A DNA stretch of 26,730 nt. It comes from a virus (Duplodnaviria > Caudoviricetes). Positions 4,890-26,730 of the stretch are shown here, in pieces. The number at the start of each line of letters is the position of its first letter. Position 1 is the first letter of the stretch. The stretch spans positions 1-26,730 of IMG/VR virus record IMGVR_UViG_3300011334_000331. One strand, written 5' to 3'. The notes under the pieces are model-generated. The model saw only the letters and a program-made list of their open reading frames with translations, did no database searches and had not been told where the DNA came from. Position numbers and translations under genes: made by a program.

Positions 4890-5915
4890 ATGAACCACAT
4901 CGGACTATTTGAAGGCATTGGCGGATTTTCACTTGCAGCACGCTGGATGGGATGGGAAACTATTGCATGGTGCGAATGGAACGAGTTTGGTCAAAAAGTA
5001 TTAAAACATCACTTTCCAAAAGCACAACCACATGGAGATATTACAAAAACAGACTTCACTATTTACCGAGGACAATGCGACATACTTACAGGAGGATTCC
5101 CATGCCAACCCTACAGCCTTGCAGGAAAGCGTAAGGGCAAAGAAGATGACCGCCACCTCTGGCCGGAAATGCTCCGAGCAATTACAGAAATTCAACCAAC
5201 TTGGGTTGTGGGCGAAAACGTTTTCGGACTTGTTAATTGGTCAGGAGGGTTGGTATTCAACGAAGTGCAAACTGACTTGGAAGCTCAGGGGTACGAAGTA
5301 TTCCCGTATGTACTGCCAGCTGCGGCCGTTAACGCTCCACACCGAAGGGATAGAATTTGGTTTGTTGCTAAAAACACCTTCAGCAATGGATGCCTACTCG
5401 GAAAAATTGAGCAAGAAAGAACAAAAGTTCGGAAATTCGGGAACACTTGCACAAGAAGTTCAGACAGGGTTCATATATCAAAGGGGAATGCTTCCCACCC
5501 CAACCGCAATCCAACGGGAAGACCCGGACAGGGTACAAGCATTGAAGGAATCGGGAGCAACCACAATGTTCAGCAGAGTGAATGGGGAAGCAAGACCGAA
5601 CTCAATATTAGACCATCTTCAGTTCCACAGAATGTTATGCACGCCAACGGCACAAGCAAGCAGGGGGAATACATCAGACAAAAGGGGGAAGGGAAATCTA
5701 ACAGACCAAATAGCAGAAATGGAGTTGACTATTGGCAAAACTTCCCAACTCAATCCCCCGTTTGTTCTGGAGATGATGGGCTTTCCTCCCGACTGGACTC
5801 TATTACCTTTCCTAAGTGGAGAAACGAATCCATAAAAGCAGCAGGCAACGCAATCGTTCCACAGGTAGCATATCAAATATTTAAAACTATAAAACTTTAC
5901 AATGAAAAACTTTAA
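4890..5915 (+). CDS. dcm: DNA (cytosine-5) methyltransferase, alpha polypeptide
   Basis: Motif I LFEGIGGF, IV GGFPCQPYS, VI ENV, VIII HRRDRIWFVA and X AAGNAIVPQVA. No recognisable motif IX in this frame. Confidence 0.9.
   Translation: MNHIGLFEGIGGFSLAARWMGWETIAWCEWNEFGQKVLKHHFPKAQPHGDITKTDFTIYRGQCDILTGGFPCQPYSLAGKRKGKEDDRHLWPEMLRAITEIQPTWVVGENVFGLVNWSGGLVFNEVQTDLEAQGYEVFPYVLPAAAVNAPHRRDRIWFVAKNTFSNGCLLGKIEQERTKVRKFGNTCTRSSDRVHISKGNASHPNRNPTGRPGQGTSIEGIGSNHNVQQSEWGSKTELNIRPSSVPQNVMHANGTSKQGEYIRQKGEGKSNRPNSRNGVDYWQNFPTQSPVCSGDDGLSSRLDSITFPKWRNESIKAAGNAIVPQVAYQIFKTIKLYNEKL
5032..5835 (+). CDS. Nested alternative-frame gene: putative beta polypeptide of the methyltransferase (motif IX)
   Basis: 267-codon ORF wholly inside dcm in the +1 frame; three L-x-T-P-x-A repeats and C-terminal LNPPFVLEMMGFPPDWT resembling C5-MTase motif IX. 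Confidence 0.7.
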   Translation: MEILQKQTSLFTEDNATYLQEDSHANPTALQESVRAKKMTATSGRKCSEQLQKFNQLGLWAKTFSDLLIGQEGWYSTKCKLTWKLRGTKYSRMYCQLRPLTLHTEGIEFGLLLKTPSAMDAYSEKLSKKEQKFGNSGTLAQEVQTGFIYQRGMLPTPTAIQREDPDRVQALKESGATTMFSRVNGEARPNSILDHLQFHRMLCTPTAQASRGNTSDKRGKGNLTDQIAEMELTIGKTSQLNPPFVLEMMGFPPDWTLLPFLSGETNP

Positions 5916-6230: not shown

Positions 6231-6662
6231 ATGCCAGCACCAATAGGAAATAAATACGCTTTAGGGGCAAATTCTGGTAGGCCTGCTACTTATAAAGATT
6301 CTGAAAGTCTTTATACTGCCGTTATGGACTATTTTGAAGGATGCAATAAGCATGAAATAAAAGCAACAATTACTGGTTTAGCTTTGTTTTTAGGGTTTAA
6401 AAGCAGATCAAGTTTTGATGATTACAAAGAAAGAAGCGAAGAATTTTCGTACATAATAGAAAGGGCAAAATTAGCTGTTGAATATTCTTATGAATCATCT
6501 GGAACAGCCTTTGACATATTCGCATTAAAAAACATGGGCTGGAAGGATAAAACAGAAACTGGTTTAACTAACTCCAAAGGCGAAGATGTACAGCAACAGT
6601 TTATATTTACATTAGCACAAAATTGCCAGCCAATTGAAGATAGTAATACCATTACTAAATAA
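6231..6662 (+). CDS. terS: Terminase small subunit (P22 gp3-like DNA packaging protein)
   Basis: MPAPIGNKYA...GRPATY, TITGLALFLG and IFALKNMGWKDK are characteristic; first gene of the late operon. Confidence 0.85.
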   Translation: MPAPIGNKYALGANSGRPATYKDSESLYTAVMDYFEGCNKHEIKATITGLALFLGFKSRSSFDDYKERSEEFSYIIERAKLAVEYSYESSGTAFDIFALKNMGWKDKTETGLTNSKGEDVQQQFIFTLAQNCQPIEDSNTITK

Positions 6663-7257
6663 AGGCCCTTACGAGCAGCTACGTTATGCCATCCGTTCGA
6701 TGGCTACCGTTTACCCAAATGCAGATTTTATTTTGGTAGGTGGTAAGCCTAAATGGTACAAAGGGCAGCACATTGCGCACGAAGATTACCATCCTACAAA
6801 GAAAGAAGAAAACATCAGAGATAAAGTAATTGCCGGCTCTCAAGGGTTAGGCAATTTTCTTTTTGCCAATGATGATCACATATTGCAGTTTCCTATTATG
6901 GAAACTTACAACAAAGGCAAACTATCAGAAACAGTCAAAGGCCGCAACCCTTCTGGCAGTTATACAAGGTTATTACTTAATACCATTGCACAATATGGGG
7001 ATGTTGATAATGTAGATACTCACTGCCCGATGTGGATGAATAGTAATATGATAAAAAACACTAACTTTGAATGGCCACTGTTTGGTATAGGTTTTAAAAC
7101 TTGTTACGCCAAAGAAAACAAGATTGAATCTATTTTTATGAATGATTGCAAGGTTTCAAAGATACCACCACCGCGCCGTTGGTGGAGCATGACTGATGAT
7201 TTTGATACAAGGCAATTGAGCAGCATTTACCAGCAGCCGTCTAAATTTGAATTATGA
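6634..7257 (+). CDS. Stealth CR2-like sugar-phosphate transferase (GT-A-like)
   Basis: EQLRYAIRSM and FLFANDD resemble the Stealth CR2 ELRYSLRS and FLYFNDD motifs; TTG start overlapping terS. Confidence 0.6.
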   Translation: MKIVIPLLNKGPYEQLRYAIRSMATVYPNADFILVGGKPKWYKGQHIAHEDYHPTKKEENIRDKVIAGSQGLGNFLFANDDHILQFPIMETYNKGKLSETVKGRNPSGSYTRLLLNTIAQYGDVDNVDTHCPMWMNSNMIKNTNFEWPLFGIGFKTCYAKENKIESIFMNDCKVSKIPPPRRWWSMTDDFDTRQLSSIYQQPSKFEL

Positions 7258-8429
7258 ATCTTCTTGTTATAGTTGTTTATAATCGTGTAGAAAATATTAA
7301 CCGATGGTTAAAGGTTTGGCAGCAATGCAAACAATCGGCCCACATGGTTATTATTCACACGGGGCCAGATGCGTTAACGATTCCCGATGGCATTACCTAC
7401 ATACGAAGGCCAAACATAGGCTTTGACATTGGCAGCCTGCAAGATGTTTGCAATGAGCGATTAAACGGATTCCCAAACGATTGGCAAAAGATGCTTTGGT
7501 GTACAGATGATACATTGCCGATGCAGCCAGATTTTTTAGATGTATTCTTTAACAAGCTAACGGTTAAAGTGGGTTGCGTTGCGATGGAGATAAGCCCGTA
7601 TGTTAGAAAGCACATTAGAACTACTGGCTTTGCAATTACTAAAGAAGTTGCTAATAAATTAACCTTCCCAATAGATCCAATTGTAACCAAAGAACATTGC
7701 TATCAGTTTGAGCATCTAAGCGGCAATATTATGTACAATCAAATACTTTTGATGAAATTGGAAGTACTGATGGCTGCACCTGCAAAAGATAGCCCGTTGT
7801 TTGACTTTGGCTATCACAGGCGGCTAAAACAACGTGAAGCAGAACATTATACTACATTTGCAGAACCTACCAAAGGATTGCCCAAGGTGTCCATTATCTG
7901 CCCTACCTACCAAAACTACCCACAGATTGCATCTGCATTACTTTGCCAAACTTACCAAAATTGGGAATTGCACATCGTGCATGATGGCCTTGGAACAATA
8001 GACCTGCCAAAAGACAAACGTATTAAGTTTACACAAACACCGGCACGTTCTGCCAATTGGGGGCATTCAATTAGAAGGGATATGTTGCAAGCTGTTAGCG
8101 GTGATTATGTTGTAATTACGAATCCGGATAATTATTTGGTTCCTACCTTTTTAGAAAAGATGATAGGCGGTTTTAAACAGGGTATTGTTGCAACTTATTG
8201 TAGCCAAATGGTTCATAACTACATTGGGCATAAAGTTATAAATTGCAGCCTAAAACGTGGATATTTGGATTGTAGCGGTGTTATGCTTAAATTAGCAGAA
8301 GCAAAAGCAGTAGGATGGAATGATGTAAATTCCCATTCTGCTGATTGGTTTTTCTTTAACGACATTATTAACAGATATGGGCAGCACTCATTTGCAAGGG
8401 TTGAAGGATGCCTATTAATACACAACTAA
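7254..8429 (+). CDS. Two-domain glycosyltransferase (RgpF-like N-terminal domain plus GT2 domain)
   Basis: N-terminal RPNIGFDIGS...WCTDD...HIRTTGFA; C-terminal VSIICPTYQ...LLCQTYQNWELHIVHDG...GDYVVITNPDN...ADW, a GT2 pattern. Confidence 0.8.
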   Translation: MNLLVIVVYNRVENINRWLKVWQQCKQSAHMVIIHTGPDALTIPDGITYIRRPNIGFDIGSLQDVCNERLNGFPNDWQKMLWCTDDTLPMQPDFLDVFFNKLTVKVGCVAMEISPYVRKHIRTTGFAITKEVANKLTFPIDPIVTKEHCYQFEHLSGNIMYNQILLMKLEVLMAAPAKDSPLFDFGYHRRLKQREAEHYTTFAEPTKGLPKVSIICPTYQNYPQIASALLCQTYQNWELHIVHDGLGTIDLPKDKRIKFTQTPARSANWGHSIRRDMLQAVSGDYVVITNPDNYLVPTFLEKMIGGFKQGIVATYCSQMVHNYIGHKVINCSLKRGYLDCSGVMLKLAEAKAVGWNDVNSHSADWFFFNDIINRYGQHSFARVEGCLLIHN

Positions 8430-8430
8430 A

Positions 8431-9633
8431 ATGAAATGCAAACAACACACAATCTGCCGCTGCTGTGGTGCTGACAAGTTAGAACCTTATCTTGATTTGG
8501 GAATGATGCCTCTTGCAAACAATCTTGAACTAACAAAAGAAGATGCACTAAATGCAGAAAGATTCCCGTTAAAGGTTATGATTTGCGAAGATTGTTCATT
8601 AAGCCAATTATCTGTAGTTATTGATCCGGAGTTGCTATTCAGCAATTACTTTTACCGTTCAAGTATGAGCCAAGGTTATAAAGACCATTGCAAAGAAATG
8701 GCTATTGAATTACAAAGTAGATACGGGTTTAACAATGATTCGTTTATTATAGACATAGCCGGCAATGATGGGGCATTATTGCATGAATTTTACAAAATTA
8801 TTAAACCTTGGAAGTCGTTAAATATTGATCCTGCCGAAAACTTAGTAAAAGCAAATGAAGAATTAGGCGTAAGGCAATTTACTGCATTTTGGGGAATGCA
8901 ATCAGCAAAGCAACTTGAAACAATGGGCTGGCCTAAAGCCGATTTGATAACTGCTACAAATGTATTTGCTCACGTTGATAACATCAAAGAATTTTTAGAA
9001 GCTGCAAAATATGCATTAAAGCCAGACGGCGTTATTGTGTTGGAATTCCCTTACATTGTAGATTTTATTAATAAAGGCGAATTTGATACCGTTTATTTTG
9101 AGCACCTTAGCTACATGAGCGTTTCACCTTTAGAGTTGCTGGCATTTGATTTGGGCTTGCAAATTACAAACATAACAAGGCATTCAATACACGGCGGCAC
9201 TATTCGGATTGAATTAAAGCACGGGCAAACATTAAAGATTACAAATGAATCGTTATCAGAATTCTTTATAGATTACAAAACTTATGCATCGAAGGTTGAA
9301 GATTGCGTAAAAGCATTTAAAAAGGGTATTGCAAATATAGACGGTAGCATTGCCTGCTTTGCTGCATCTGCAAAAGGTAACACACTTTTAAACGTGGTAG
9401 GTGAAACAAGCCGCATCGAATATATTGTAGATGAAACGCCAGAAAAGATTGGCAAGTATTCGCCAGGTACTGGCCTTGAAGTAGTGCCATTGATTCATCT
9501 TGCAGCGTTTCCGGTTGATTACATTATCATACTTAGCTGGAATTTTGCTGAAGAAATAATAAAAAAATGTAAATCAATTGGTTACAGTGGTAAATTTATT
9601 ATACCTATTCCAACATGGCAAATAGTAGAGTAA
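8431..9633 (+). CDS. SAM-dependent NDP-sugar C-methyltransferase (TcaB9-like)
   Basis: Zinc-binding CRCC...CEDC, LDLGMMPLAN, DIAGNDG, NVFAHV, FDTVYFEHLSY, HGGTIR, AASAKGNTLLN and KIGKYSPGT. Confidence 0.88.
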   Translation: MKCKQHTICRCCGADKLEPYLDLGMMPLANNLELTKEDALNAERFPLKVMICEDCSLSQLSVVIDPELLFSNYFYRSSMSQGYKDHCKEMAIELQSRYGFNNDSFIIDIAGNDGALLHEFYKIIKPWKSLNIDPAENLVKANEELGVRQFTAFWGMQSAKQLETMGWPKADLITATNVFAHVDNIKEFLEAAKYALKPDGVIVLEFPYIVDFINKGEFDTVYFEHLSYMSVSPLELLAFDLGLQITNITRHSIHGGTIRIELKHGQTLKITNESLSEFFIDYKTYASKVEDCVKAFKKGIANIDGSIACFAASAKGNTLLNVVGETSRIEYIVDETPEKIGKYSPGTGLEVVPLIHLAAFPVDYIIILSWNFAEEIIKKCKSIGYSGKFIIPIPTWQIVE

Positions 9634-13470: not shown

Positions 13471-14196
13471 TTGGAAAATCTCTATACATACAAAGATACC
13501 ACACTGCCAGCATCGTTTAAGGATGCCGACATGAAGAAAGGTATTGTTACTGGTTATTTTTCCCGTTTTGGGAATGTAGATAGTGACGGTGATATTATAA
13601 AGGCTGGCGCATTCGCAAAGACAGTAAAAGAGCAGGGGCCAAAGAGTGCACAGCCACGCATCAAGCATTTAATGAATCACAACCCATCAATGCCGCTTGG
13701 TAAAATATTAGACCTTAAAGAAGATAGCAGCGGGTTGTTATACGAATCACAAGTAGGAACGCACGCTTTAGGGCAGGACTTTATAAAGATGGTTGAAAGC
13801 GGATTGATAACCGAGCATTCAATCGGTTACAGAACTATAAAGCGAAACCAGATACAAGATTATGCCGGATATCAAAAGAACCCTACAAAGGGAATGTTTG
13901 AGATTACAGAGGCTAAATTGTTTGAAGGCAGCAGTTTAACTGCATGGGGTGCGAATCCATTAACGCCGCTAACGGGTTTAAAAAACGCTGTGAATATTGA
14001 TAGCGTTATTTCGCAGCAAGTAGCAATAGAAAAGTTTTGTAAAGATTCTACTGCGACTGATGAAACTATTGAAATGTTATTGTTGCATAGTAAGCAACTT
14101 TCACAATACATACTTGATATTAAGGCCAATCAGCCAGCAAAAGCTACTGATCCGGATAAATGGCAAGGATGGGTAACAAAATTAAAAACAACTTAA
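13471..14196 (+). CDS. HK97-family prohead protease
   Basis: GYFSRFGNVDSDGDII, HLMNHN, SIGY and LFEGSSLTAWGANP; TTG start. Confidence 0.9.
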   Translation: MENLYTYKDTTLPASFKDADMKKGIVTGYFSRFGNVDSDGDIIKAGAFAKTVKEQGPKSAQPRIKHLMNHNPSMPLGKILDLKEDSSGLLYESQVGTHALGQDFIKMVESGLITEHSIGYRTIKRNQIQDYAGYQKNPTKGMFEITEAKLFEGSSLTAWGANPLTPLTGLKNAVNIDSVISQQVAIEKFCKDSTATDETIEMLLLHSKQLSQYILDIKANQPAKATDPDKWQGWVTKLKTT

Positions 14197-14207
14197 TTAT
14201 TTATAAA

Positions 14208-15512
14208 ATGGAAAAGAAAACACCGGCACAAATAGAAGCCGAAAAGAAAGCCAGAAAAAACGCTATTGATGTAGCTGAAAAGGCTTACAACGAATTTGAA
14301 GTTAAAGAACCAACTGATTTGCAAAAGTCATTCGATTTGCTTAAAGCAGTTATCGAATTGAAAGGCGCTGATGAGGTTAAAAACTTTGACGAAAAGATTG
14401 CCGCTATCGAAGCAGCTACTCTTGAAGCAAAAGAAGCTAAAGAAGCCGAATTGAAAACAATCGGTGAGCGTTTGGAAGCTACCATTTCTGCATTGGATAT
14501 TGTACAAGCAAGAGTAAAAGCAGACCGCAACAACGGAACTGCAACACCTTCTACAAAATCATTTGCTGAATTGTTGAGCGAAAACATCAACGAGAAAGCA
14601 AGCGAAATCACTACCTTAAAGAAAGGGCAATCAACATCTTTCGAAATGAAAGACATGAGTTTTGCAACTTCTTTCAGTACTGCTGGTACTTCAGTTGCAT
14701 TTGCTCGCCCAGGCATCATTGAATTGCCAAAGCGTAAATTGCACATTCGCCAACTTTTAACCGGCGGTAACATGGGTGCTAAATCTACCTTTGATTACGT
14801 TAAAGAGGTTGCTGGTTCTGGTTCTATTGGCCCAGTTGCTGAAGCTACTTTGAAGCCACAGATTGAACTTGCTTTGCAAGAGGTTAGCGTAAAGGCAGAA
14901 TGGATTGCTGGTTGGTTGCGTATTTCTCGCAATATGCTTGATGATGTAACTGGTATGACTACCTTTTTACAAAGTCGTTTGCCAGAATTGTTACTTCGTG
15001 CTGAAGATAACCAATTGTTAAACGGTACTGGTACTTCACCACAGTTAAGCGGTATCACTGATGCTGGTAACTTTACTGCACCAACAGGAACTTCTACAAT
15101 TGATGTTGAGCAATTGGTTCAAGCGGTTGCACAGTTAGAAGGTTACGACAGAGAAGCAAATGGCATATTGTTAAACCCTGCTGATTGGTACAGAATCTGG
15201 TTAAATAAAGCTTCTGTAGGTGGTGAATATGATTTGCCAATTAATTTGATTACCAAAGTAGGTGACCAAATGTTCATCGCTGGTGTTCCTGTGTTCAGAA
15301 GCACTGCAATTGCGGTTGATAAATTCATCGTTGGTGATTGGGCAATGGGTGCAAACTTCATCTTGCGCGAAGCTCCAAGGGTTGAATTCTTCTACGAAGA
15401 TGGTATCAATGTTCGTGAGAACATGGTAACTGTTAGAATCGAAGAAAGAGTAGCATTCCCGATTTACGGTGATAACTACTTCATCTATGGTGATTTCGGT
15501 AACGTATCATAA
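14208..15512 (+). CDS. Major capsid protein (HK97 fold) with an N-terminal coiled-coil delta domain
   Basis: EATLKPQ, ISRNMLDD, AEDNQLLNGTG, LLNPADW, GVPV and NMVTVRIEERV; ATG 14208 has an A-rich leader. Confidence 0.93.
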   Translation: MEKKTPAQIEAEKKARKNAIDVAEKAYNEFEVKEPTDLQKSFDLLKAVIELKGADEVKNFDEKIAAIEAATLEAKEAKEAELKTIGERLEATISALDIVQARVKADRNNGTATPSTKSFAELLSENINEKASEITTLKKGQSTSFEMKDMSFATSFSTAGTSVAFARPGIIELPKRKLHIRQLLTGGNMGAKSTFDYVKEVAGSGSIGPVAEATLKPQIELALQEVSVKAEWIAGWLRISRNMLDDVTGMTTFLQSRLPELLLRAEDNQLLNGTGTSPQLSGITDAGNFTAPTGTSTIDVEQLVQAVAQLEGYDREANGILLNPADWYRIWLNKASVGGEYDLPINLITKVGDQMFIAGVPVFRSTAIAVDKFIVGDWAMGANFILREAPRVEFFYEDGINVRENMVTVRIEERVAFPIYGDNYFIYGDFGNVS

Positions 15513-16548: not shown

Positions 16549-17394
16549 ATGGCAGATAAAAAATTTAGTCAGTTTACAGTAGCCACTACAGCAACTGATG
16601 CATCATTAGCAGGTTTACAAGATGGTGAAAATGTATTGATTCCATCGGCTTTATTAAATGATTTAATTAATGCCATTCCTTTAACTGGAACTGAAGTAGG
16701 CAACCCAGTAACCGGCCCAATTGAATTTGGTGTAGGTGGACAAAATATTGCGCGAGGCACATTTGACAATGGAACTGGTGGCGATAATGGTGTAAGTTTA
16801 AATTGTGCAGTAGGATATGAATTGAACTGGCAAGGTGGTAAACTTTCTGTAAAAACTGGTTCTACTATTGTTCCTTATGATTGCAGGCCTTATAAAGTTT
16901 ATACAGCTTTATTAACACAGAGTGGGGGAAGTGTTGGAAACCAAATAGGCACTGGTCAACTAACATTAGGTGTAACATATTACATATTTGATAGTTCTTT
17001 AGGAATGGATTTTACAAATGTAGGAGCACCAGATAATAATGTAGGAACTTACTTTGTAGCAACAGGCACTACTCCAAATAGTTGGGGTGATTCAGAAGGC
17101 AATGATATACTTACTTATAACTCAGGAGCACCAGTAGCAACAGTGTTAGAAAACAATATTGGGAATATTTATTGGGTTTATGGCGGTGTTGGACAATATA
17201 TAGCATTTTTTGATAGTGTAAATTATTTAGTAACATATGTTAGTATAAGTCAAAGTAATTCAACTGCTCATTTAATAGCTACAAATGTTGATGATAATAG
17301 TGCTTTGGCTGCAATAAATTCTCAATTATTTGATGGTACTTCAGTAGATTCAAGAATGTATTACACACCAATAGAAATAAGAGTGTACAATTAA
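16549..17394 (+). CDS. Putative neck/collar appendage or fibre-like protein
   Basis: MADKKFSQF start, Gly/Thr/Asn-rich beta-type sequence, C-terminal YKVYTALLTQSG...TPIEIRVYN module; located among neck genes. Confidence 0.55.
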   Translation: MADKKFSQFTVATTATDASLAGLQDGENVLIPSALLNDLINAIPLTGTEVGNPVTGPIEFGVGGQNIARGTFDNGTGGDNGVSLNCAVGYELNWQGGKLSVKTGSTIVPYDCRPYKVYTALLTQSGGSVGNQIGTGQLTLGVTYYIFDSSLGMDFTNVGAPDNNVGTYFVATGTTPNSWGDSEGNDILTYNSGAPVATVLENNIGNIYWVYGGVGQYIAFFDSVNYLVTYVSISQSNSTAHLIATNVDDNSALAAINSQLFDGTSVDSRMYYTPIEIRVYN

Positions 17395-17400
17395 AAATAA

Positions 17401-17799
17401 ATGGTAGATTTAAACACATTAGGGCAAGCAGAACCATTAACCGGATTGGAGCAACTACCATTGCTACAAAACGGCATTTGGGTATTGGGTAGGATTGCAG
17501 ATGTGTTAAACCTTACGCCGCCAACGATTGCAACAGCACCAACAGCATTTGCAGCGGTTGCATTTGATGAATCGCAGATTGATTTAACTTGGACTGGCAG
17601 CGGTGATAATTACATTGTAGAATCAAACAGAGGTGATAACGGCGATGCTTGGGTTGAGATTTACAGCGGTGCAACGGCCTCGTATAGTGATACGTTATTA
17701 TTCCCAGAAGAAACATATTACTACCGGCTTAAATCACAAGTTACTGGCGAAGCGGATTCTGATTGGGTATTGACTAATGAAACAACGCCAGCAGCATGA
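17401..17799 (+). CDS. Fibronectin type III domain virion protein
   Basis: APTAFAA...SQIDLTWT...YSDTLL-x-PEETYYYRLKS...SDW is an FN3 signature. Confidence 0.75.
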   Translation: MVDLNTLGQAEPLTGLEQLPLLQNGIWVLGRIADVLNLTPPTIATAPTAFAAVAFDESQIDLTWTGSGDNYIVESNRGDNGDAWVEIYSGATASYSDTLLFPEETYYYRLKSQVTGEADSDWVLTNETTPAA

Positions 17800-18826: not shown

Positions 18827-19267
18827 ATGGCACAAAGAACAGCGGAAGGTAAAAACTTAGTATTGTTGATTGATACCCTTAATACGGGTGCAAGCTATGA
18901 TCTTGTTGTATGCCTTACAAGTAACAGTTTTGCTCGTACAGCTAATGTGATAGACGCATCAAGTAAGTGTGGAACTGAAAAGATTAACGGCGTAAAAGAC
19001 CGTACAATTGCGCTTGAAGGCACAGTTCAGTTTGATCCTTCAGTTGGCAAACTTTCAGAAGGTGATTTAAACGACATCTTTGAAAACGATACCCGTGTTG
19101 CGTGGCTATTCGGCCCAGAAACTCCGGTAGCTGGTGATTACTACTACACCGGAACTGATGCTTTATTGAGTGATTTAACTTTAGATGCTCCAAACGATGG
19201 TGCAGCAACATTCAGCGGTACTTTGCAGTTGAGTGGTGTGCCAGTTCGTACGGTAGAAGGTTCTTGA
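18827..19267 (+). CDS. Major tail tube protein (TP901-1/lambda-like)
   Basis: CLTSNSF...IDASSKC and LTLDAPNDGAATFSGTLQLSG; strong A-rich leader. Confidence 0.85.
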   Translation: MAQRTAEGKNLVLLIDTLNTGASYDLVVCLTSNSFARTANVIDASSKCGTEKINGVKDRTIALEGTVQFDPSVGKLSEGDLNDIFENDTRVAWLFGPETPVAGDYYYTGTDALLSDLTLDAPNDGAATFSGTLQLSGVPVRTVEGS

Positions 19268-19927
19268 CTGCCCCAGTCCTTGCCTGGATTGTGGGCAATC
19301 TACGATGCAGCGGAAGGCGTTACGGGTACAACATCCGTAACAGCGTGGGCAGATCAATCTGGAAACGGAAATAATCTAACATTGGCAAACCCAGTGAACC
19401 CGCTTGAACTTGTAGCCGCTGAAATAAATTCGCTGCCAGCAATTCATAGCAAATTTACGGGTGCTTACGGTGCATTCATATCTGGTACAAACGCATTGCC
19501 AGCATTTACAACGGGTGGCGTAGTTTGGGCAGTAGTAAAGCAAACAACAGCGGATGTTTCAATAAATTCTGGTGTTACAAACTTTATGCAAGGCGGTTCA
19601 GAATTCGAGATAAAGAGGCATAATTTAGCAATCCCAGGCGCAATTTGTGCGACTGCTTTAGGTTCTGGTTTGGCTGGCGTTGCTGCTGCTAATAATGTTT
19701 ATCACATTGTTAGAATGGTTGTTGGTACAACTAATATGAAGCTGGCCATTAATAACGGTACTGAAGATGTAGAGGCGGTATTTAACACACCGGCGGCATC
19801 AACATTAACGATGTTTGGACAAGGTGATAAATACATTGCTTATGTTGCAATAGCAGCAGATTTGCCAAGTACCAATGATATTACACAAATGGAAGCGTAT
19901 CTAAATACGAAGTTTAATGTTTATTAA
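19268..19927 (+). CDS. LamG/concanavalin-like domain, in frame with the major tail protein (probable readthrough extension)
   Basis: LPGLWAIYDA...VTAWADQSGNGNNL...INSLPAI...MEAYLNTKF; the frame is open from the codon directly after the tail tube TGA. Confidence 0.7.
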   Translation: MPQSLPGLWAIYDAAEGVTGTTSVTAWADQSGNGNNLTLANPVNPLELVAAEINSLPAIHSKFTGAYGAFISGTNALPAFTTGGVVWAVVKQTTADVSINSGVTNFMQGGSEFEIKRHNLAIPGAICATALGSGLAGVAAANNVYHIVRMVVGTTNMKLAINNGTEDVEAVFNTPAASTLTMFGQGDKYIAYVAIAADLPSTNDITQMEAYLNTKFNVY

Positions 19928-20273: not shown

Positions 20274-20548
20274 GCTGGTTAGGCTGGACAGAACGTGAAT
20301 ATTATACAAGTAGCCCAGAAGCATTTTACTATGCCAGCAAGGGCTATTTTGCTAAAAGGCAAGAAGATATGTTGATAACAAGATTTTCAACATACATCAT
20401 AGCAGCCAGCAATGTAGGCACAAAGGCACTGGGTAGTATTGATAAGGTTTGGCCATTAAGTAGCGATGGCAAACTGGTTGATAAAATGGATTCTACAAGG
20501 ATTGAAAATATTAAGAAACGCTATAAAATAAGAACAAATGCCAGTTGA
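20234..20548 (+). CDS. Tail assembly chaperone gpT-like segment, expressed by a -1 frameshift
   Basis: Not in the ORF track; the -1 frame reads AFEGIRQNYETALGWLGWTEREYYTSSPEAFYYASKGY...RTNAS and stops at 20546-20548, overlapping the tape measure start. Confidence 0.75.
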   Translation, partial: AFEGIRQNYETALGWLGWTEREYYTSSPEAFYYASKGYFAKRQEDMLITRFSTYIIAASNVGTKALGSIDKVWPLSSDGKLVDKMDSTRIENIKKRYKIRTNAS

Positions 20549-22505
20549 AGTACTTACGGTCGAAGCCAATTATGTGGGCGCAGGTCTTGACAAAGGGCTA
20601 AAAGGCGCAGAGAAACAGTTTGAAAAAACAAAAAAGGCTGGCGATGAATTAGGAAGTACTTTAGGCAAAAATCTTACAAATGGTACAAACACAGCGGGGC
20701 AATCACTGCAGAATTTAGGCCGTATTGCGCAAGATGCGCCATTTGGGTTTATCGGGATTCAAAACAACATTAATCCATTAATAGAATCGTTTGGCAGACT
20801 TAAAGCCGAAACGGGCAGCACTGGTAGCGCATTTAAATCATTGGCAGGATCATTATTTGGTGTTGGTGGCTTTGGCCTTGCTGTATCACTTGCAACTGGA
20901 TTATTAACTGTATTAACACAAAAAGGTTTTTTTAATGCTAAAAAAGGCGCAGAAGAAACAACAGAAGCAAACAAAAAATTAAAAGAATCATACGATAGCA
21001 TTATTTCTTCATTAGGTGAAGAACAAGTAAAAGTTGATCAAATTGTAAATGCTTTAAAAACAGAAACTTTAACAAGAGCGCAAAGGAATGAAGCAATTAA
21101 CCAACTGCAAAAAATTGCACCAGAATACTTTGCAACATTAAATAAAGAAAACGCATCTATAGGACAGATAACACTTGCTTACGATAAATTTTCTGCATCA
21201 ATATTAAAATCAATTGAAGCAAGGGTAAGAGAAAAAGAATTAATAAGCGTAACTGAAGAAATTTTAAAGTTACAAGATAAAGCAACTAAGTTAGGCGAAG
21301 ATGAAGTTTTAATTAATGGTAAGTTAGTAAAGGTAAGCAGACAAATTTATGACAGTAATAGTGAAACTCTTACAGATGCAGAAGCATATCAAGCAACAAT
21401 AAAAGGAACTTTAGCATTAACAACTGAAGAAAATAAGAGGTTACAAGAATTAGAAAAAACAAGGGCAAGGCTTTTACAATTAGTTACTCAATCTAAGGGC
21501 GCAGAACAATTTAATGTTACGCCTAAAGCCAAAAAAGATATTGAAACTATTTCTGATGTTTTAGCTAAATTAGAAAAAGAAATAGCATTTCTAAATAAAA
21601 AAGAAATTGCATTTAGTACTAATGAAAGTAAAGCTAAAATAAGCGCATTTTTTAGCACTGCTGAAAAGTTAATAAAAGATTTTAATGTTGATCCAAAAAA
21701 TACAATTATAACCAAATTGTTTGGCCGTGCTGCTGATGTTAAAATTTTAGATACATTAAAAATACTCGAAAGGTTTTCAGCAAATAAGTTTATTCCACCA
21801 CCTATTGAAATTCCTTTACAAATAATACCAAAGCTACCTGGGGAAAGTATATTTTCTGGCAATGAGCAACTTTTAACAGTACCACCAATACAAGTAGAAA
21901 GATTTAAGAAAGAAGCGTTTTTATTAGGGCAAGGTTTTAACACTGAATTTGTAAAAGGTTTAAACGATGGCCAATTAGATAAAGCGTTTGCAGAATTGAC
22001 TGCAAGAATAGCAGAAAATCAATCTTTAGTTAGCGATGTAATAAGCACATTTGGTGAAGGTATTGGTAAAAGCGTTGCACAAGGTGGATCATTTATATCT
22101 GCTGCATTTAGTGGAATTCTAAATATCATTGGCGATTTTTTAGTAAAACTTGGTAAGGCTGCAATACTACAATCAAAGTTGATTTTAGCAATTGGGGCTG
22201 GTAATCCTATCACTGGCCTTGCTGCTGGCCTTGCGGCTGTAATTGCTGGTTCAATACTTAAAAGCATTCAGCTACCTGCATTCGCAACTGGTGGAACTGC
22301 GCCAGGCGGCTCAATATTAGTTGGTGAACGTGGGCCAGAGATTATCACAGCCCCAAGAGGTGCAACAATTACACCAAACGCACAAACAAATGCAATGCTA
22401 TCTGGTGCTGGCGGCGGCACGGTAGTATTTAGAATACAAGGCAGAGAATTGGTAGGCGTATTAAATAACACAAATGCTACGCTCGGCAGAAATGGGCAGG
22501 GGTAA
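20538..22505 (+). CDS. Tape measure protein
   Basis: Long helical Ala/Gly/Lys/Glu-rich protein with hydrophobic segments, RIAQDAPFGFIGIQNNI and C-terminal FATGG...VGERGPE. Confidence 0.88.
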   Translation: MPVEVLTVEANYVGAGLDKGLKGAEKQFEKTKKAGDELGSTLGKNLTNGTNTAGQSLQNLGRIAQDAPFGFIGIQNNINPLIESFGRLKAETGSTGSAFKSLAGSLFGVGGFGLAVSLATGLLTVLTQKGFFNAKKGAEETTEANKKLKESYDSIISSLGEEQVKVDQIVNALKTETLTRAQRNEAINQLQKIAPEYFATLNKENASIGQITLAYDKFSASILKSIEARVREKELISVTEEILKLQDKATKLGEDEVLINGKLVKVSRQIYDSNSETLTDAEAYQATIKGTLALTTEENKRLQELEKTRARLLQLVTQSKGAEQFNVTPKAKKDIETISDVLAKLEKEIAFLNKKEIAFSTNESKAKISAFFSTAEKLIKDFNVDPKNTIITKLFGRAADVKILDTLKILERFSANKFIPPPIEIPLQIIPKLPGESIFSGNEQLLTVPPIQVERFKKEAFLLGQGFNTEFVKGLNDGQLDKAFAELTARIAENQSLVSDVISTFGEGIGKSVAQGGSFISAAFSGILNIIGDFLVKLGKAAILQSKLILAIGAGNPITGLAAGLAAVIAGSILKSIQLPAFATGGTAPGGSILVGERGPEIITAPRGATITPNAQTNAMLSGAGGGTVVFRIQGRELVGVLNNTNATLGRNGQG

Positions 22506-22508
22506 CAC

Positions 22509-24779
22509 ATGGCATACGGTTTAATATACACATCTGAATTTGATTCCTTTAAAGGGGCGGCTTGCCGTTTAGAAATAGACAAAAAAGACTTTGTCGGCAC
22601 TGATTCTGCTATTGTTTGCGGCGGTGGTGCAACCGTTTTATCATGGGGGCCAGATGATCCAAAAGCCGCTATTCGTGGCGCAAGTTTGGATGTAGAACTT
22701 TTAAACGTACAAGGTACGTTCCCAATATCAAACTTCTACAGCATCGAAGATGATTCTTTTAAAGTTAGATTGTATGAAAACGGGCAGTTGGTATTTACTG
22801 GCTTTTTGGTGCAAGATGATTGCAGCGAGGTTGTAGATGATTTTACCCATTCCTTAAATATTTCTGCAACTGATAACCTTGGATTGCTTAAAGATATTTC
22901 TTTGGATCAAGCAGCGTTTATTAATCGGGATATTATAATAAATGGAACTTTTGCCGTAACAAGCGGCGGCGGCAGTTATCCGGTAGGTTTATTGATCGAA
23001 GCACTATCAACTACAGATTTGCTTATTAATGGCGCATCAATTACAATTGATAACGGAATAACGCCACCTTATACAATTATAGTTGCATCTTATACCTTTT
23101 CTGCAATAACTGGAGATTACACCATTGTTGTAGGCACAGCACAGCCCTCGTATTCAGTTTTAGCAGCCACAGTAGAGATTTACCGCCAAGATGATTTAAG
23201 AGGCAGAATGCCGTTTGCAGAACTGTTTAAACTATTAATGCGTGCTACTGGCTTAGAACTTAATACCAAAGTGTTCATGACTGTTTTTTGCGTTGGTGGT
23301 GCAACGGGTAGAACTTTAGAAGATGTGCAGATTGAGCCGCAAACGTGGCTAAATAATCAAAACTATGATGATTGTTGGCAAATTATAGAAGATGTTTTAG
23401 GGCGTTTTCGGGCTTGTCTGTTTCAAGCCAATGGATATTGGGTAATATTAAGGCCAGATGAATTAAGGGAGTGGAACGGGCAGATAGTGGGCTTTGAGTA
23501 TGATGCAGACTTTGTTTATGTCGATGCGGTAACAATGCCAGCACCAATAACAATTGGAACGGGCAGCGATATTGAGGCTGGGTTGTTATCATCAATTCAA
23601 AGGCCGCTGAAGTATGTTCGTGAAGAATTTAATTACGAATTCCCAGAAAACACATTATGTAACGGGCCCTTAAATCAATTAGGCAATTATAGAACTTCTT
23701 ACGCATCGGGTGCAAATGTTGTTACTGAATATGATTTGCCAGGATGGGAGCAAGGATTCGACTATACAACGGGCGGCAATGGTTATTTTGGTTCAAGTGC
23801 TTTGCGGTTTATAAGAATAACTACAAATGCAGTAGGCAAAGAGATTGGCAGAACATTGGTAATAAAAGGCAATAGCGGGTTTTCTGATCCTGCTTGCGTT
23901 CAATCCTGCCCTATTGATGTTCGTATTGGGGATAATATACAATGGGGTTTTGAGTTTAAAACAAATACAAGCCAGCCAGGAAATAGAAACATTGGCTTTG
24001 TTGCTGAAATAATAACAACCGCTTCGCCTACACCACGCAGCATGAATAACAAGCGTTTACGATATGATGGCCGCTGGTTTTCGTGGATGGATCCTATACC
24101 ACCAAACATATCTATTTATCAAAATATACCAGTAGGTGAAAACACAAACAACTGGCAAAACTTTAGCATACAAAGTACAGAAATTCCCGTTAATGGAATT
24201 TTAACCGTAAAGCTATCACAAGCAGTTGTAGGCAATAGTTCAAGCAAAGAAACAGAATACAGAAACTTTAGCTTTGAAATTACACGCTCAATAGCAGGCG
24301 TTCAAAACATCATTGGCCATACTCACACACAAACGCAAGAACCAGAGATTAAAAACAACAACGACATCAATATAAAAATTGATGATGCGCCAAGTTCAAA
24401 CATTAGGGGCGCAATTTTTTTGCCTACGTTTACCGGCCCATTGCAGAACCTTACAACATTATGGCAGCGTGGTATTGATGGCAGCGGTAGCGGCGGTAAT
24501 CAATTTACTTTAGGGCAATTGATTACAAAAGATGAATTGTTTAACAGAAGAAAGGATCGTGTAAAATTAGACGGGAATATTTTACTAAGCAACCTCACGC
24601 CATTATCTGTAATTCAATATACAGATATGATTGATAAATACTTTATATTTGGGGCATTGGAAGTTAGCCATAAATTTGGCGAAACAAACGGGAATCTATA
24701 CGAATATTATACTGATGATGAAACGCTGATAGATTTAATTTCAGATTACGAATTTAACTACTTATACAATACGAGATGA
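22509..24779 (+). CDS. Tail tip / baseplate hub-like structural protein
   Basis: 756 aa, beta-rich, directly after the tape measure gene; FTGFL and SATDNLGLLK segments resemble hub-type proteins. Confidence 0.6.
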   Translation: MAYGLIYTSEFDSFKGAACRLEIDKKDFVGTDSAIVCGGGATVLSWGPDDPKAAIRGASLDVELLNVQGTFPISNFYSIEDDSFKVRLYENGQLVFTGFLVQDDCSEVVDDFTHSLNISATDNLGLLKDISLDQAAFINRDIIINGTFAVTSGGGSYPVGLLIEALSTTDLLINGASITIDNGITPPYTIIVASYTFSAITGDYTIVVGTAQPSYSVLAATVEIYRQDDLRGRMPFAELFKLLMRATGLELNTKVFMTVFCVGGATGRTLEDVQIEPQTWLNNQNYDDCWQIIEDVLGRFRACLFQANGYWVILRPDELREWNGQIVGFEYDADFVYVDAVTMPAPITIGTGSDIEAGLLSSIQRPLKYVREEFNYEFPENTLCNGPLNQLGNYRTSYASGANVVTEYDLPGWEQGFDYTTGGNGYFGSSALRFIRITTNAVGKEIGRTLVIKGNSGFSDPACVQSCPIDVRIGDNIQWGFEFKTNTSQPGNRNIGFVAEIITTASPTPRSMNNKRLRYDGRWFSWMDPIPPNISIYQNIPVGENTNNWQNFSIQSTEIPVNGILTVKLSQAVVGNSSSKETEYRNFSFEITRSIAGVQNIIGHTHTQTQEPEIKNNNDINIKIDDAPSSNIRGAIFLPTFTGPLQNLTTLWQRGIDGSGSGGNQFTLGQLITKDELFNRRKDRVKLDGNILLSNLTPLSVIQYTDMIDKYFIFGALEVSHKFGETNGNLYEYYTDDETLIDLISDYEFNYLYNTR

Positions 24780-25483
24780 GCGAAATAGTAAAAGGCGAAA
24801 ATGTAACTGTTTTTAAATATGTGCAATCCATTAACGCTTGGGTTCCATACGCTTGCGCTCGTTCATGCTCGTTTTCTGTCGAAACAGATACTATTGAAAC
24901 CTCAATTACTGGCAGCGGCAAATATAGAACTTTTATACCGCGCTCAAACGCATCTACCGGATCATTAGAAGGGCTTACACAATTGGAGAAAGTAAACAAC
25001 CTTAGCATTTCAGATTTAATTGCTATGCAAGTAGCACATGAAATACTTTTAATGCGCTGGGAAGATATTTCAGACAATGGTGATGTTTTCACAAAGGAGT
25101 TAGAAATGTTTATCACCAACACAACGCAAACAGCATCATTTGATAATGTAGCTACATTTTCTGTATCTTTACAAGGTACAGGGCCAATAACATTAGTTTA
25201 CACACCTACACCATTAATACAAGGGATCATGTACAGAAAAGAATTTATTTTACCGGCTAACGAAGATTCTATTCTACTCACAGAATTAGACGGTGTAAGT
25301 ATTGACAATGTAATATCAATAATTTTAGACAATAGCGATGCCAGTATAATAATTGGCAGCGGCACGCCGATTGGACAAGAAGTAAAATACAATTCATCTG
25401 GTGCAACTATTACATTTCCGTTTGCAACAGACATAGATTTAAACGGTTATGTATCATATCAAATTATTTATGAAGCAAGTTAA
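24776..25483 (+). CDS. Second tail-tube-fold protein with a C-terminal extension
   Basis: ACARSCSFSVETDTIETS and FITNTTQTASFDNVATFSVSLQGTGPI parallel tail tube motifs, including those of 18827-19267. Confidence 0.65.
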   Translation: MSEIVKGENVTVFKYVQSINAWVPYACARSCSFSVETDTIETSITGSGKYRTFIPRSNASTGSLEGLTQLEKVNNLSISDLIAMQVAHEILLMRWEDISDNGDVFTKELEMFITNTTQTASFDNVATFSVSLQGTGPITLVYTPTPLIQGIMYRKEFILPANEDSILLTELDGVSIDNVISIILDNSDASIIIGSGTPIGQEVKYNSSGATITFPFATDIDLNGYVSYQIIYEAS

Positions 25484-26730
25484 TTTAGTAGCAGCATTGT
25501 TGCTTTTTTCGTTTTCTGCATTTGCGCAGACAGTAACACCAGATCCTGGGCCTTATGCGCCTATGAATCAAAAGTATGAATACCGCTGGATAAAAACAAG
25601 CGGCGGCTTATGGAATCTTGGTAAATTGATTGTGCAAGATAGCACCGATTTGCGTAGCATTACCTACGTTACCACTGCACCGGATAATGATAGTTCAAAA
25701 CGTGTTGCAAGCACTGCTTGGGTAAAAAAGAACATTACAGCAAGCGGCGGCGGCAGCGGTGTTGATAGCGTAAGAAGAAAAGGAGTTACAGATACAATAC
25801 AAGAATATTACGGCGGCGCGTTTGGTTATAGAAGATTTGCATTTACTGCACCATTGCCAGGTAGCTTTGTTCCTTACACCGGAGCAACGCAAGATGTAAA
25901 CTTAGGTGAATTCGGTTTGCAAACGGGTAACGTAGAATTTGACAATACACCTATAAATTTACCTACTGCTGCTGGTTCGATGTATTACAACGATAGCGAT
26001 GGGACTTTAGATTTAATATTGAAGGGCGGTAATGTTACATTACAAATAGGACAAGAAACAGTTTTAAGAGTAGTAAATAAAACAGCAACAAATGTAAATT
26101 TATTACAGGCAAATTATCAAGCCGTAAGGGTTACGGGTGCGCAAGGGCAAAGGGTTAAAGTAGATTTAGCCCGTGCAACTTCAGATACTTTTTCTGCTGA
26201 AACAATAGGATTGGTAACTGAAACGATTAATAACAACCAAGAAGGGTTTATAACAACAAGCGGATTAGTAAGGGGTATAAATACTACTGGTTCATTGCAA
26301 GGTGAAACTTGGGCAGATGGTGATATAATTTATCTAAGCCCTACAACAGCGGGAAGCCTTACAAAAGTTAAACCAGTAGCACCAAACCATTTAGTTATAA
26401 TAGGATATGTAATTCATTCGCACGCTACGCAAGGCAGCATCTTTGTAAAGGTTGATAATGGTTACGAATTAGATGAACTGCACAATGTGAAAATAACAAC
26501 GCCAACAAATAACCAAGCGTTAGTCTATAATGATACTACCGATGTTTGGGAAAATAAAAGATTGGTTACCGTTACCTCCTACGGCAAAAACGCTACAGCC
26601 GACAGCACAATACTTTTACTTAGCAACGGTACTCGCTACGCTGCAAAGGATAGTGTAGGGGGTGGGGGTGCTATGGCTATTGGTGGAACTATTACAAGTG
26701 CAACGGCTGGAAGTGCTTTATTTGCTGGAA
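25470..26730 (+). CDS. Tail fibre-like protein with an N-terminal Sec signal peptide (3' end runs off the window)
   Basis: Not in the ORF track; open for 420 codons: MKQVNLVAALLLFSFSAFAQTVTPD...VASTAWVKK...FVPYTGATQDVNLG...ETIGLVTETI...GDIIYLSPTTAG...LDELHNVKITTPTNNQALVYNDTTDVWEN. The ATG overlaps the end of the previous gene. Confidence 0.75.
   Translation, partial: MKQVNLVAALLLFSFSAFAQTVTPDPGPYAPMNQKYEYRWIKTSGGLWNLGKLIVQDSTDLRSITYVTTAPDNDSSKRVASTAWVKKNITASGGGSGVDSVRRKGVTDTIQEYYGGAFGYRRFAFTAPLPGSFVPYTGATQDVNLGEFGLQTGNVEFDNTPINLPTAAGSMYYNDSDGTLDLILKGGNVTLQIGQETVLRVVNKTATNVNLLQANYQAVRVTGAQGQRVKVDLARATSDTFSAETIGLVTETINNNQEGFITTSGLVRGINTTGSLQGETWADGDIIYLSPTTAGSLTKVKPVAPNHLVIIGYVIHSHATQGSIFVKVDNGYELDELHNVKITTPTNNQALVYNDTTDVWENKRLVTVTSYGKNATADSTILLLSNGTRYAAKDSVGGGGAMAIGGTITSATAGSALFAG

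Follow-up and report, generated by a model that had tools for sequence, protein, structure and literature searches.

A probable side tail fibre with a predicted Sec leader and Bacteroidota-type O-glycosylation sequons in a clade of long-tailed phages

Genes at the locus

The stretch of DNA analysed here (positions 1 to 26,730 of the IMG/VR virus record IMGVR_UViG_3300011334_000331; hereafter the window) is a 26.7-kb piece of a long-tailed phage (siphophage; Duplodnaviria, Caudoviricetes). Its last gene, which probably encodes a side tail fibre (receptor-binding protein), begins with a predicted Sec signal peptide. The window encodes a terminase, a portal protein, an HK97-type capsid protein and connectors, as well as tail tube, tape measure and tip proteins and another protein with a tail tube fold. 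All features of the tail region given below lie on the plus strand. The main tail tube gene (18827..19267; PF06199), the tape measure gene (20538..22505) and the gene of a 756-aa tail tip protein (22509..24779), which was assigned by its position and its homology to gp088 of the Cellulophaga phage phi10:1, are leaderless. They are followed by the second tail-tube-fold gene (24776..25483), which is always located 5' of the leader-bearing gene. It encodes a tube domain as well as a beta domain at the C-terminus and matches PHROG 1407 (E 3e-19), and the structure model of its product (predicted local distance difference test, pLDDT, 78.6) resembles tail tubes. This protein is a candidate docking ring for the fibre.

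The best matches of the terminase belong to Parabacteroides and Bacteroides phages, and the top bit scores of the capsid protein to Cellulophaga phages. In addition, none of the 19 gene starts in the window is preceded by a Shine-Dalgarno-like word, and starts lacking such words are the pattern of the Bacteroidota. From these neighbours and starts, we strongly infer that the host belongs to this phylum, to which its placement is limited.

The leader-bearing gene

The gene (25470..26730) overlaps the end of the upstream tube gene with its first 14 nt and runs off the contig at its 3' end. It shows 420 visible codons, and its close homologues mostly have 730-1180 aa. From ATG 25470, the leader reads MKQVNLVAALLLFSFSAFA and is followed by Q (CAG at 25527), so that the leader and Gln at +1 are present as the initial annotation had claimed. 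The predicted Sec/signal peptidase I (SPase I) signal peptide comprises 19 aa (25470..25526) with A-F-A at -3 to -1, and the Gln at +1 (25527..25529) is predicted to be converted to pyroglutamate, in line with the Q-rule as presented in PMC5837995. When a leader was defined by a basic start, an uncharged hydrophobic 8-mer, A or G at -1 and Q at +1, only the fibre gene passed among 19 window genes tested. A further in-frame ATG at 25449, 21 nt upstream, would add 7 residues and retain the leader.

Searches of Pfam, PHROGs and NCBIfam with the window protein gave no match, and the ESM Atlas gave only matches below 0.9, mostly to unnamed viral clusters. The single-sequence AlphaFold model of the mature protein (pLDDT 30.5) was too low for use.

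Conservation of the leader and of the gene slot

A search with residues 1-135 against 1.84 billion representatives yielded 41 matches with identities down to about 33%. A full leader and Gln were present in 32 of them, and in 5 the gene call starts within the hydrophobic stretch. The remaining 4 are weak matches (E 4e-6 or worse) without a leader, which look unrelated and were excluded from the subsequent counts. Homologues that lack the leader had been named as a possible argument against export; 37 of the 41 matches show it. In a working set of 32 loci, 31 distinct leader sequences with unrelated hydrophobic cores and lengths of 16-22 residues occur, and position -1 is occupied by Ala (25 loci) or Gly (7 loci). 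The mature head (25527..25730) is conserved and is putatively the tail anchor. Two of its aromatic positions are almost invariant throughout the clade, and its motif sits at the mature start in 24 of the 32 loci.

As circularity was to be avoided, the upstream tube gene was used as a second bait. Gln at +1 was built into the leader parsing of the 32 loci, and the leader call in this survey did not include it. The survey kept loci (34 rows, 31 distinct contigs) with a complete tube-domain open reading frame (ORF) behind an ORF of 600 aa or more and omitted loci matched through other genes or ending before the next gene. The leader gene was directly next in 27 of the 28 contigs obtained with this bait, among which L133, L138 and L139 are near copies, and it was found one gene later in L097. 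In L107 it follows after a gap of about 750 nt, and in L109 the long leader gene stands behind a short one. The second tube proteins (22 sequences) form one group in the tree with a support of 100/99. The slot is constant as well, with the fibre gene between the tail tip and the holin; in L100, L119, L123, L133, L136, L144 and L150 only short ORFs separate the fibre and holin-like genes. The textbook state of a leaderless cytoplasmic fibre was not encountered. Since the leader occurs throughout the clade, the protein is fibre-like but no ordinary tail fibre, and it is very likely exported via the Sec pathway of the host.

The presence of the gene throughout the clade also bears on the possibility that it encodes an adhesin acting by lysogenic conversion on the surface of the lysogen. 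Lom and Eib, which are encoded in the tail region of coliphages and are surface proteins of the lysogen, offer a parallel. Furthermore, Porphyromonas prophages encode proteins with Q-rule leaders whose function is given as unknown in the part of PMC10367356 considered. This explanation is very improbable, because the gene is universal and not patchy, neither bait detected a relative in GTDB genomes, and no tyrosine integrase was found in 28 records, of which 8 have a completeness of 90% or more, nor a resolvase in 11 records, although no dedicated search was made for integrase-free plasmid prophages. The controls of these searches were positive in 14 and 12 of 14 genomes, and on these negative results a prophage moron was rejected.

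Beside the leader, a conserved Cys pair was observed at mature residues ~20-55 in L116, L119, L121, L123, L133, L136, L144 and L150, which is likely to form a disulfide in the mature head of this subfamily. L103-L110 begin with an FN3-like domain with cysteines ahead of the usual head motif. L154 (G020) contains a further leader and Gln gene of 310 aa (907-1836) on the opposite strand near the terminase region, for which no match was found in PHROGs or NCBIfam.

Excess of O-glycosylation sequons

Six D-(S/T)-(A/I/L/V/M/T) sequons had been pointed out in the visible part of the fibre, and all of them were found again: DST 25638, DSV 25764, DTI 25791, DTT 26532, DST 26601 and DSV 26649. In 20,000 shuffles of the mature part, the mean was 1.76 (3.4-fold excess; P(6 or more) = 0.006). 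The excess had been described as modest, which proved too cautious, since it amounts to 3.7-fold over the 32 mature fibres (326 observed, 87.3 expected), each of which lies above chance. After thinning to 19 fibres, 199 sequons were counted versus 52.0 expected, and the 47 database homologues showed 398 versus 140.8.

The first sequon (25638..25646) reads D-(S/T)-(A/V/T/S) in 27 of 27 aligned homologues. A seventh site, DSS (25689..25697), fits the wider motif given in PMC12871550 in the part of it considered; its D and S are present in 27 of 27 homologues and its third residue is S in 20, T in 4, N in 2 and G in 1. The only invariant columns of this alignment are D57, D74 and S75, and site 57 changes between S and T and in its third residue, yet stays within the motif. 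DSV 25764 and DTI 25791 are located in the linker behind the head (25764..25799), and DST 26601 and DSV 26649 belong to a linker cassette (26574..26669) that recurs in many family members. In 20 complete fibres, the sequons decrease along the protein (97, 55, 37, 38 and 12 per fifth of the length).

Among other proteins from the same loci, those of the tape measure, tip and second tube (n=86) held 162 sequons versus 160.1 expected (1.01). Spanin-like lipoproteins (n=10), which served as a periplasmic positive control, contained 34 versus 4.7 (7.2). Because the control motifs in the fibres are close to 1 (E-S/T 0.87; N-S/T 0.88; S/T-D 1.32), composition was ruled out as the cause of the excess. 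D-(S/T) before a polar residue is even depleted (0.37).

Residues 133-373 form a borrowed fibre module (25866..26588), which includes DTT 26532. It has 4691 matches, and the best 120 of these are mostly leaderless phage proteins. The leaderless proteins among the best 120 (n=109) showed 267 sequons versus 375.2 expected (0.71). Similarly, in 80 viral loci with the middle module, a leader was present in 0 of 79 complete genes, and 141 sequons were counted versus 255.7 expected. The starts in these loci look Bacteroidota-like, so that they are roughly host-matched controls. The comparison of sequon density with leaderless homologues thus bears out the initial annotation, as the excess is limited to the leader-bearing proteins (3.7 versus 0.71). 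At DTT 26532, NDTTD is found in 13 of 16 leader-bearing copies, whereas leaderless copies mostly have TSATD or NSTLE/Q; this difference may go back to one gain event. In P0016, the middle module is combined with an unrelated leader and head and shows 8 sequons versus 3.8 expected.

The proposal that the fibre is exported and glycosylated by the host is supported by the retention of the leader and by this motif-specific excess. From these sequence features, O-glycosylation by the host is very probable.

Sequons also occur in the spanin-like lipoproteins of the lysis regions of L034, L035, L036, L041, L047 and L057 (4-5 versus 0.4-0.6 expected). Owing to this excess in lipoproteins of Bacteroidota-type phages, phage spanins may likewise be glycosylated by the host.

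Start codon and the possibility of a cytoplasmic fibre

A cytoplasmic fibre could arise from an internal Met, or the leader might remain uncut or be removed by a phage protease, and the exported form would then be a side product or a relic. The initial annotation had raised such an isoform starting at ATG 25563 (Met32; 25563..25565). A matrix of start contexts derived from 176 tightly packed genes gave real starts a score of 2.5 +/- 3.0, compared with -3.5 +/- 3.2 for 909 internal Met codons. ATG 25470 (0.9) lies in the range of real starts, and ATG 25563 scores -9.5, a very poor context that rules it out as the main start, makes a second start there unlikely and weakens the doubt. It fits a cytoplasmic fibre that the assembly of tailed virions is normally completed in the cytoplasm, that leaderless chaperone-like ORFs lie behind the gene and that a Met is common just behind the cleavage site, as 21 of 32 loci have one within mature residues 1-16. 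However, this Met is replaced in the other 11 loci, and a second start at this position would cut the conserved head. Moreover, a relic leader would not hold its physical pattern over 31 sequences, and a cytoplasmic protein would not retain a 3.7-fold sequon excess. A cytoplasmic fibre is therefore quite improbable.

Probable identity of the fibre and its possible place on the virion

The fibre nature of the window protein follows from its homologues and the position of its gene. Proteins annotated as tail fibres in two cultured, non-Bacteroidota phages, Pseudomonas phage Rollin and Nitrincola phage 1M3-16, are among the matches of the middle module. In close full-length homologues the head is constant and the rear is swapped between a pectate-lyase-like beta-helix, sialate acetylesterase and GDSL domains. 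The rear of L115 is a Peptidase_S74 chaperone, and this locus gave PHROG tail-fibre matches at E 3e-28. Homologues also carry PF26696, which is named a phage-tail-like trimerisation region. In a complete relative of 34,867 bp with terminal repeats, the leader gene is the sole long fibre-like gene.

The main rival to attachment on the virion is a free or surface form. According to this explanation, the protein would be exported and glycosylated but stay off the virion as a late, free or envelope-bound fibre or depolymerase, and the 756-aa tip alone would bind the receptor. It might open the capsule at lysis, mask receptors on the dying cell or act as a decoy. All evidence for export and all sequon evidence fit this form equally well. 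Furthermore, several loci add leader genes resembling secreted enzymes or PKD proteins, a complete relative has a barrel-like leader and Gln gene adjoining the fibre, and among solved structures, the MAT cell-surface fibres of Bdellovibrio are most closely related to a full-length homologue. On the other hand, a free protein needs neither a conserved N-terminal head nor a fixed slot behind the second tube gene, and the full-length homologues show no C-terminal barrel or lipobox anchor. In addition, proteins of cultured phages with the same layout carry structural annotations from tandem mass spectrometry (MS/MS). A form that stays off the virion is thus considered unlikely, and by analogy to these phages we hold with moderate confidence that the fibre is present on the virion.

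The barrel-like gene mentioned above (L003 5526-5960 in the complete relative G002) encodes 144 aa with leader and Gln, contains no sequons and lies directly behind the fibre gene; it had no match in Pfam, PHROGs or NCBIfam and is possibly a superinfection-exclusion or export partner. In L093, three leaderless fibre-like ORFs (13537-15413) lie behind the leader fibre, and the first of them resembles a stretch near the C-terminus of that fibre itself, hinting at branched fibres that would consist of cytoplasmic and exported parts.

Proposed export, glycosylation and late attachment

Taken as a whole, the sequence data make it rather probable that the fibre is exported, glycosylated and docked on the virion at lysis. 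The fibre would be translated late and coupled to the tube gene, exported via Sec and cleaved by SPase I to a Gln start, at which pyroglutamate would form. The general system of the host would then O-glycosylate the stalk, and the trimer would fold in the periplasm. Once holin and endolysin mix the compartments, the conserved head would attach to the completed tail from outside. Adding fibres last is possible, because the fibres of T4 join finished fibreless particles, as described in the part of PMC3004832 considered. It could be speculated that the head binds the ring of the second tube protein, and also that glycans shield the tail-proximal stalk in the periplasm and leave the receptor-binding tip mostly bare. 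Export might perhaps also let host-type secreted domains, some with Cys pairs, fold in their native compartment. With somewhat less confidence, we favour a two-compartment assembly for the entire clade of lytic phages, in which fibreless virions from the cytoplasm and glycosylated fibres from the periplasm would be joined at lysis on the tube ring, and each virion would wear the glycan of its last host.

Several observations speak against this route. An internal ATG equals the leader ATG in score in L095 and L115 and comes near to it in L123, L133 and L144. The Cys counts show no clear even bias, and D74 is located within a common fibre motif and may be structural. In many loci a small leaderless ORF of no known family lies directly behind the fibre gene, a position in which folding chaperones are usually encoded; no chaperone family was matched by these small ORFs. 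L093 has three extra leaderless fibre-like genes with 0-1 sequons. The clade is without a cultured member, and tblastn revealed no cultured phage that matches the tip or tube genes. The mature heads of the cultured precedents are not detectably homologous to that of the window fibre (best profile E 0.003), and their sequons lie below chance (phi10:1 gp091-095 5 versus 13.0; phi18:3 gp085-087 3 versus 9.8). Their MS/MS status comes from a GenBank note, and they may have been co-purified. Finally, predicted leaders on phage capsid proteins can be propeptides of the prohead protease, as stated in the section of PMC10367356 considered.

If the route is confirmed, it would be categorically new for tailed phages, and periplasmic maturation with a host sugar tag would be a new final step of their morphogenesis. 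The apparatus of host recognition would bear a host-imprinted coat, and host O-glycosylation, signal peptidase and glutaminyl cyclase would be dependency factors of the phage. The glycan system of the Bacteroidota, whose function is called unclear in the part of the 2025 review PMC12871550 considered, would gain a tractable substrate. It would also be a warning that leader-bearing late genes are misread as morons by annotation and host-range tools. The window contributes a long-tailed clade with host-matched leaderless controls, and phi10:1 is a cultured phage of the same tail layout in which export is testable.

Other genes of the window

Between the small and the large terminase genes (6634-9633), three leaderless genes were found, namely a 207-aa ORF without an assigned family, a GT2 glycosyltransferase gene (7254-8429) and a sugar C-methyltransferase-like gene (8431-9633; PF08421, PF08484). 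This trio is retained in the complete relative G002. It is likely the cytoplasmic glycosylation kit of the phage itself, perhaps for the capsid or tail tube. The latter two genes were ruled out as writers of the sequons, since neither has a leader and the motif belongs to the periplasmic system of the host. An ORF of 267 codons (5032-5835) is nested in the DNA methyltransferase gene (4890-5915) in a different frame, and its length suggests a real overlapping gene. Leaderless accessory structural genes are located in the neck and tail block (16549-17799 and 19280-19927). They encode a 281-aa protein without a family, a 132-aa protein with a Hoc-like PHROG match and a 215-aa protein that weakly matches a virion protein. 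G002 lacks the gene of the 281-aa protein.

Comparison with known systems

No description of the proposed maturation route was found in the literature searched. Among the sources covered, which do not include subscription papers, none deals with tailed-phage fibres that are exported or glycosylated by the host. The terms 'signal peptide', 'glycosyl' and 'periplasm' are absent from the main text of PMC8776804, and the passages covered of the HFTV1 paper (PMC12494034) and of a study on marine phage proteomics (PMC12014285) contain no precedent. Phages are likewise not mentioned in the main text of the review on Bacteroidota O-glycosylation (PMC12871550).

The cultured phages closest in layout infect Cellulophaga. 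In phage phi10:1 (Assiduviridae), homologues were found of the tape measure (E 2e-30), of the tip (E 3e-9) and, by profile, of the second tube gene (E 2e-14). Its second tube protein gp089 falls outside the well-supported clade of 22 such proteins, with an unsure placement. Its second tube gene is followed by a leaderless gene of 116 aa and then by five leader and Gln genes (gp091-gp095), and 4 of these 5 proteins bear the GenBank note 'based on experimental MS/MS proteomics analysis'. Phage phi19:1 has four leader genes with the MS/MS note (gp101-104), three of them with Gln at +1, and in phi18:3, gp085-087 have leaders with Gln at +1 and the note 'experimental MS/MS proteomics analysis'. We take these notes to refer to purified particles, in view of the wording 'part of structural virion' for phi18:1 and of the 2013 Cellulophaga proteomics paper, which reportedly dealt with such particles. 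In contrast to the window, these phages encode several shorter proteins, whose heads lack clear homology to that of the window fibre. No paper was found that points out the leaders of the phi10:1, phi19:1 and phi18:3 proteins.

The head and tail genes of phage phi18:1 (Helsingorvirus) are syntenic with those of the window, its capsid, portal and adaptors are homologous, and its MS/MS-annotated fibres gp60 and gp61 also lie between the tip and the holin. This phage differs in that it has no second tube gene and no leaders, and its sequons are at chance, so that it represents the ordinary cytoplasmic state of the slot. The long tail fibres of T4 resemble the proposed system in being assembled separately and added to finished particles with non-essential helpers (PMC3004832, in the part considered), but they are made and attached in the cytoplasm and have neither a leader nor a host glycan.

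The receptor-binding protein pIII of the filamentous phage M13 also has a Sec leader and faces the periplasm as it matures. In contrast, M13 is non-tailed, and pIII is membrane-anchored and added during extrusion without lysis.

The MAT fibres of Bdellovibrio bacteriovorus are extracytoplasmic, mosaic, phage-like trimers with swapped tips, as described in the passages considered of PMC10769870. In a comparison of the homologue P0003 with the PDB, sequence matches were restricted to Bd2133 and Bd3182 (E 1e-6 and 2e-5), and these span about 50 residues beyond the visible part of the window protein. The MAT fibres are chromosomally encoded cell-surface proteins of a bacterial predator, whereas the window fibre is encoded by a phage. 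Lastly, the leader, Gln at +1 and the excess of D-(S/T)-hydrophobic motifs are shared with the substrates of Bacteroidota O-glycosylation and of the Q-rule, as far as these are presented in the parts of PMC12871550 and PMC5837995 considered; the window fibre differs from these substrates in being a phage protein built from tail modules.

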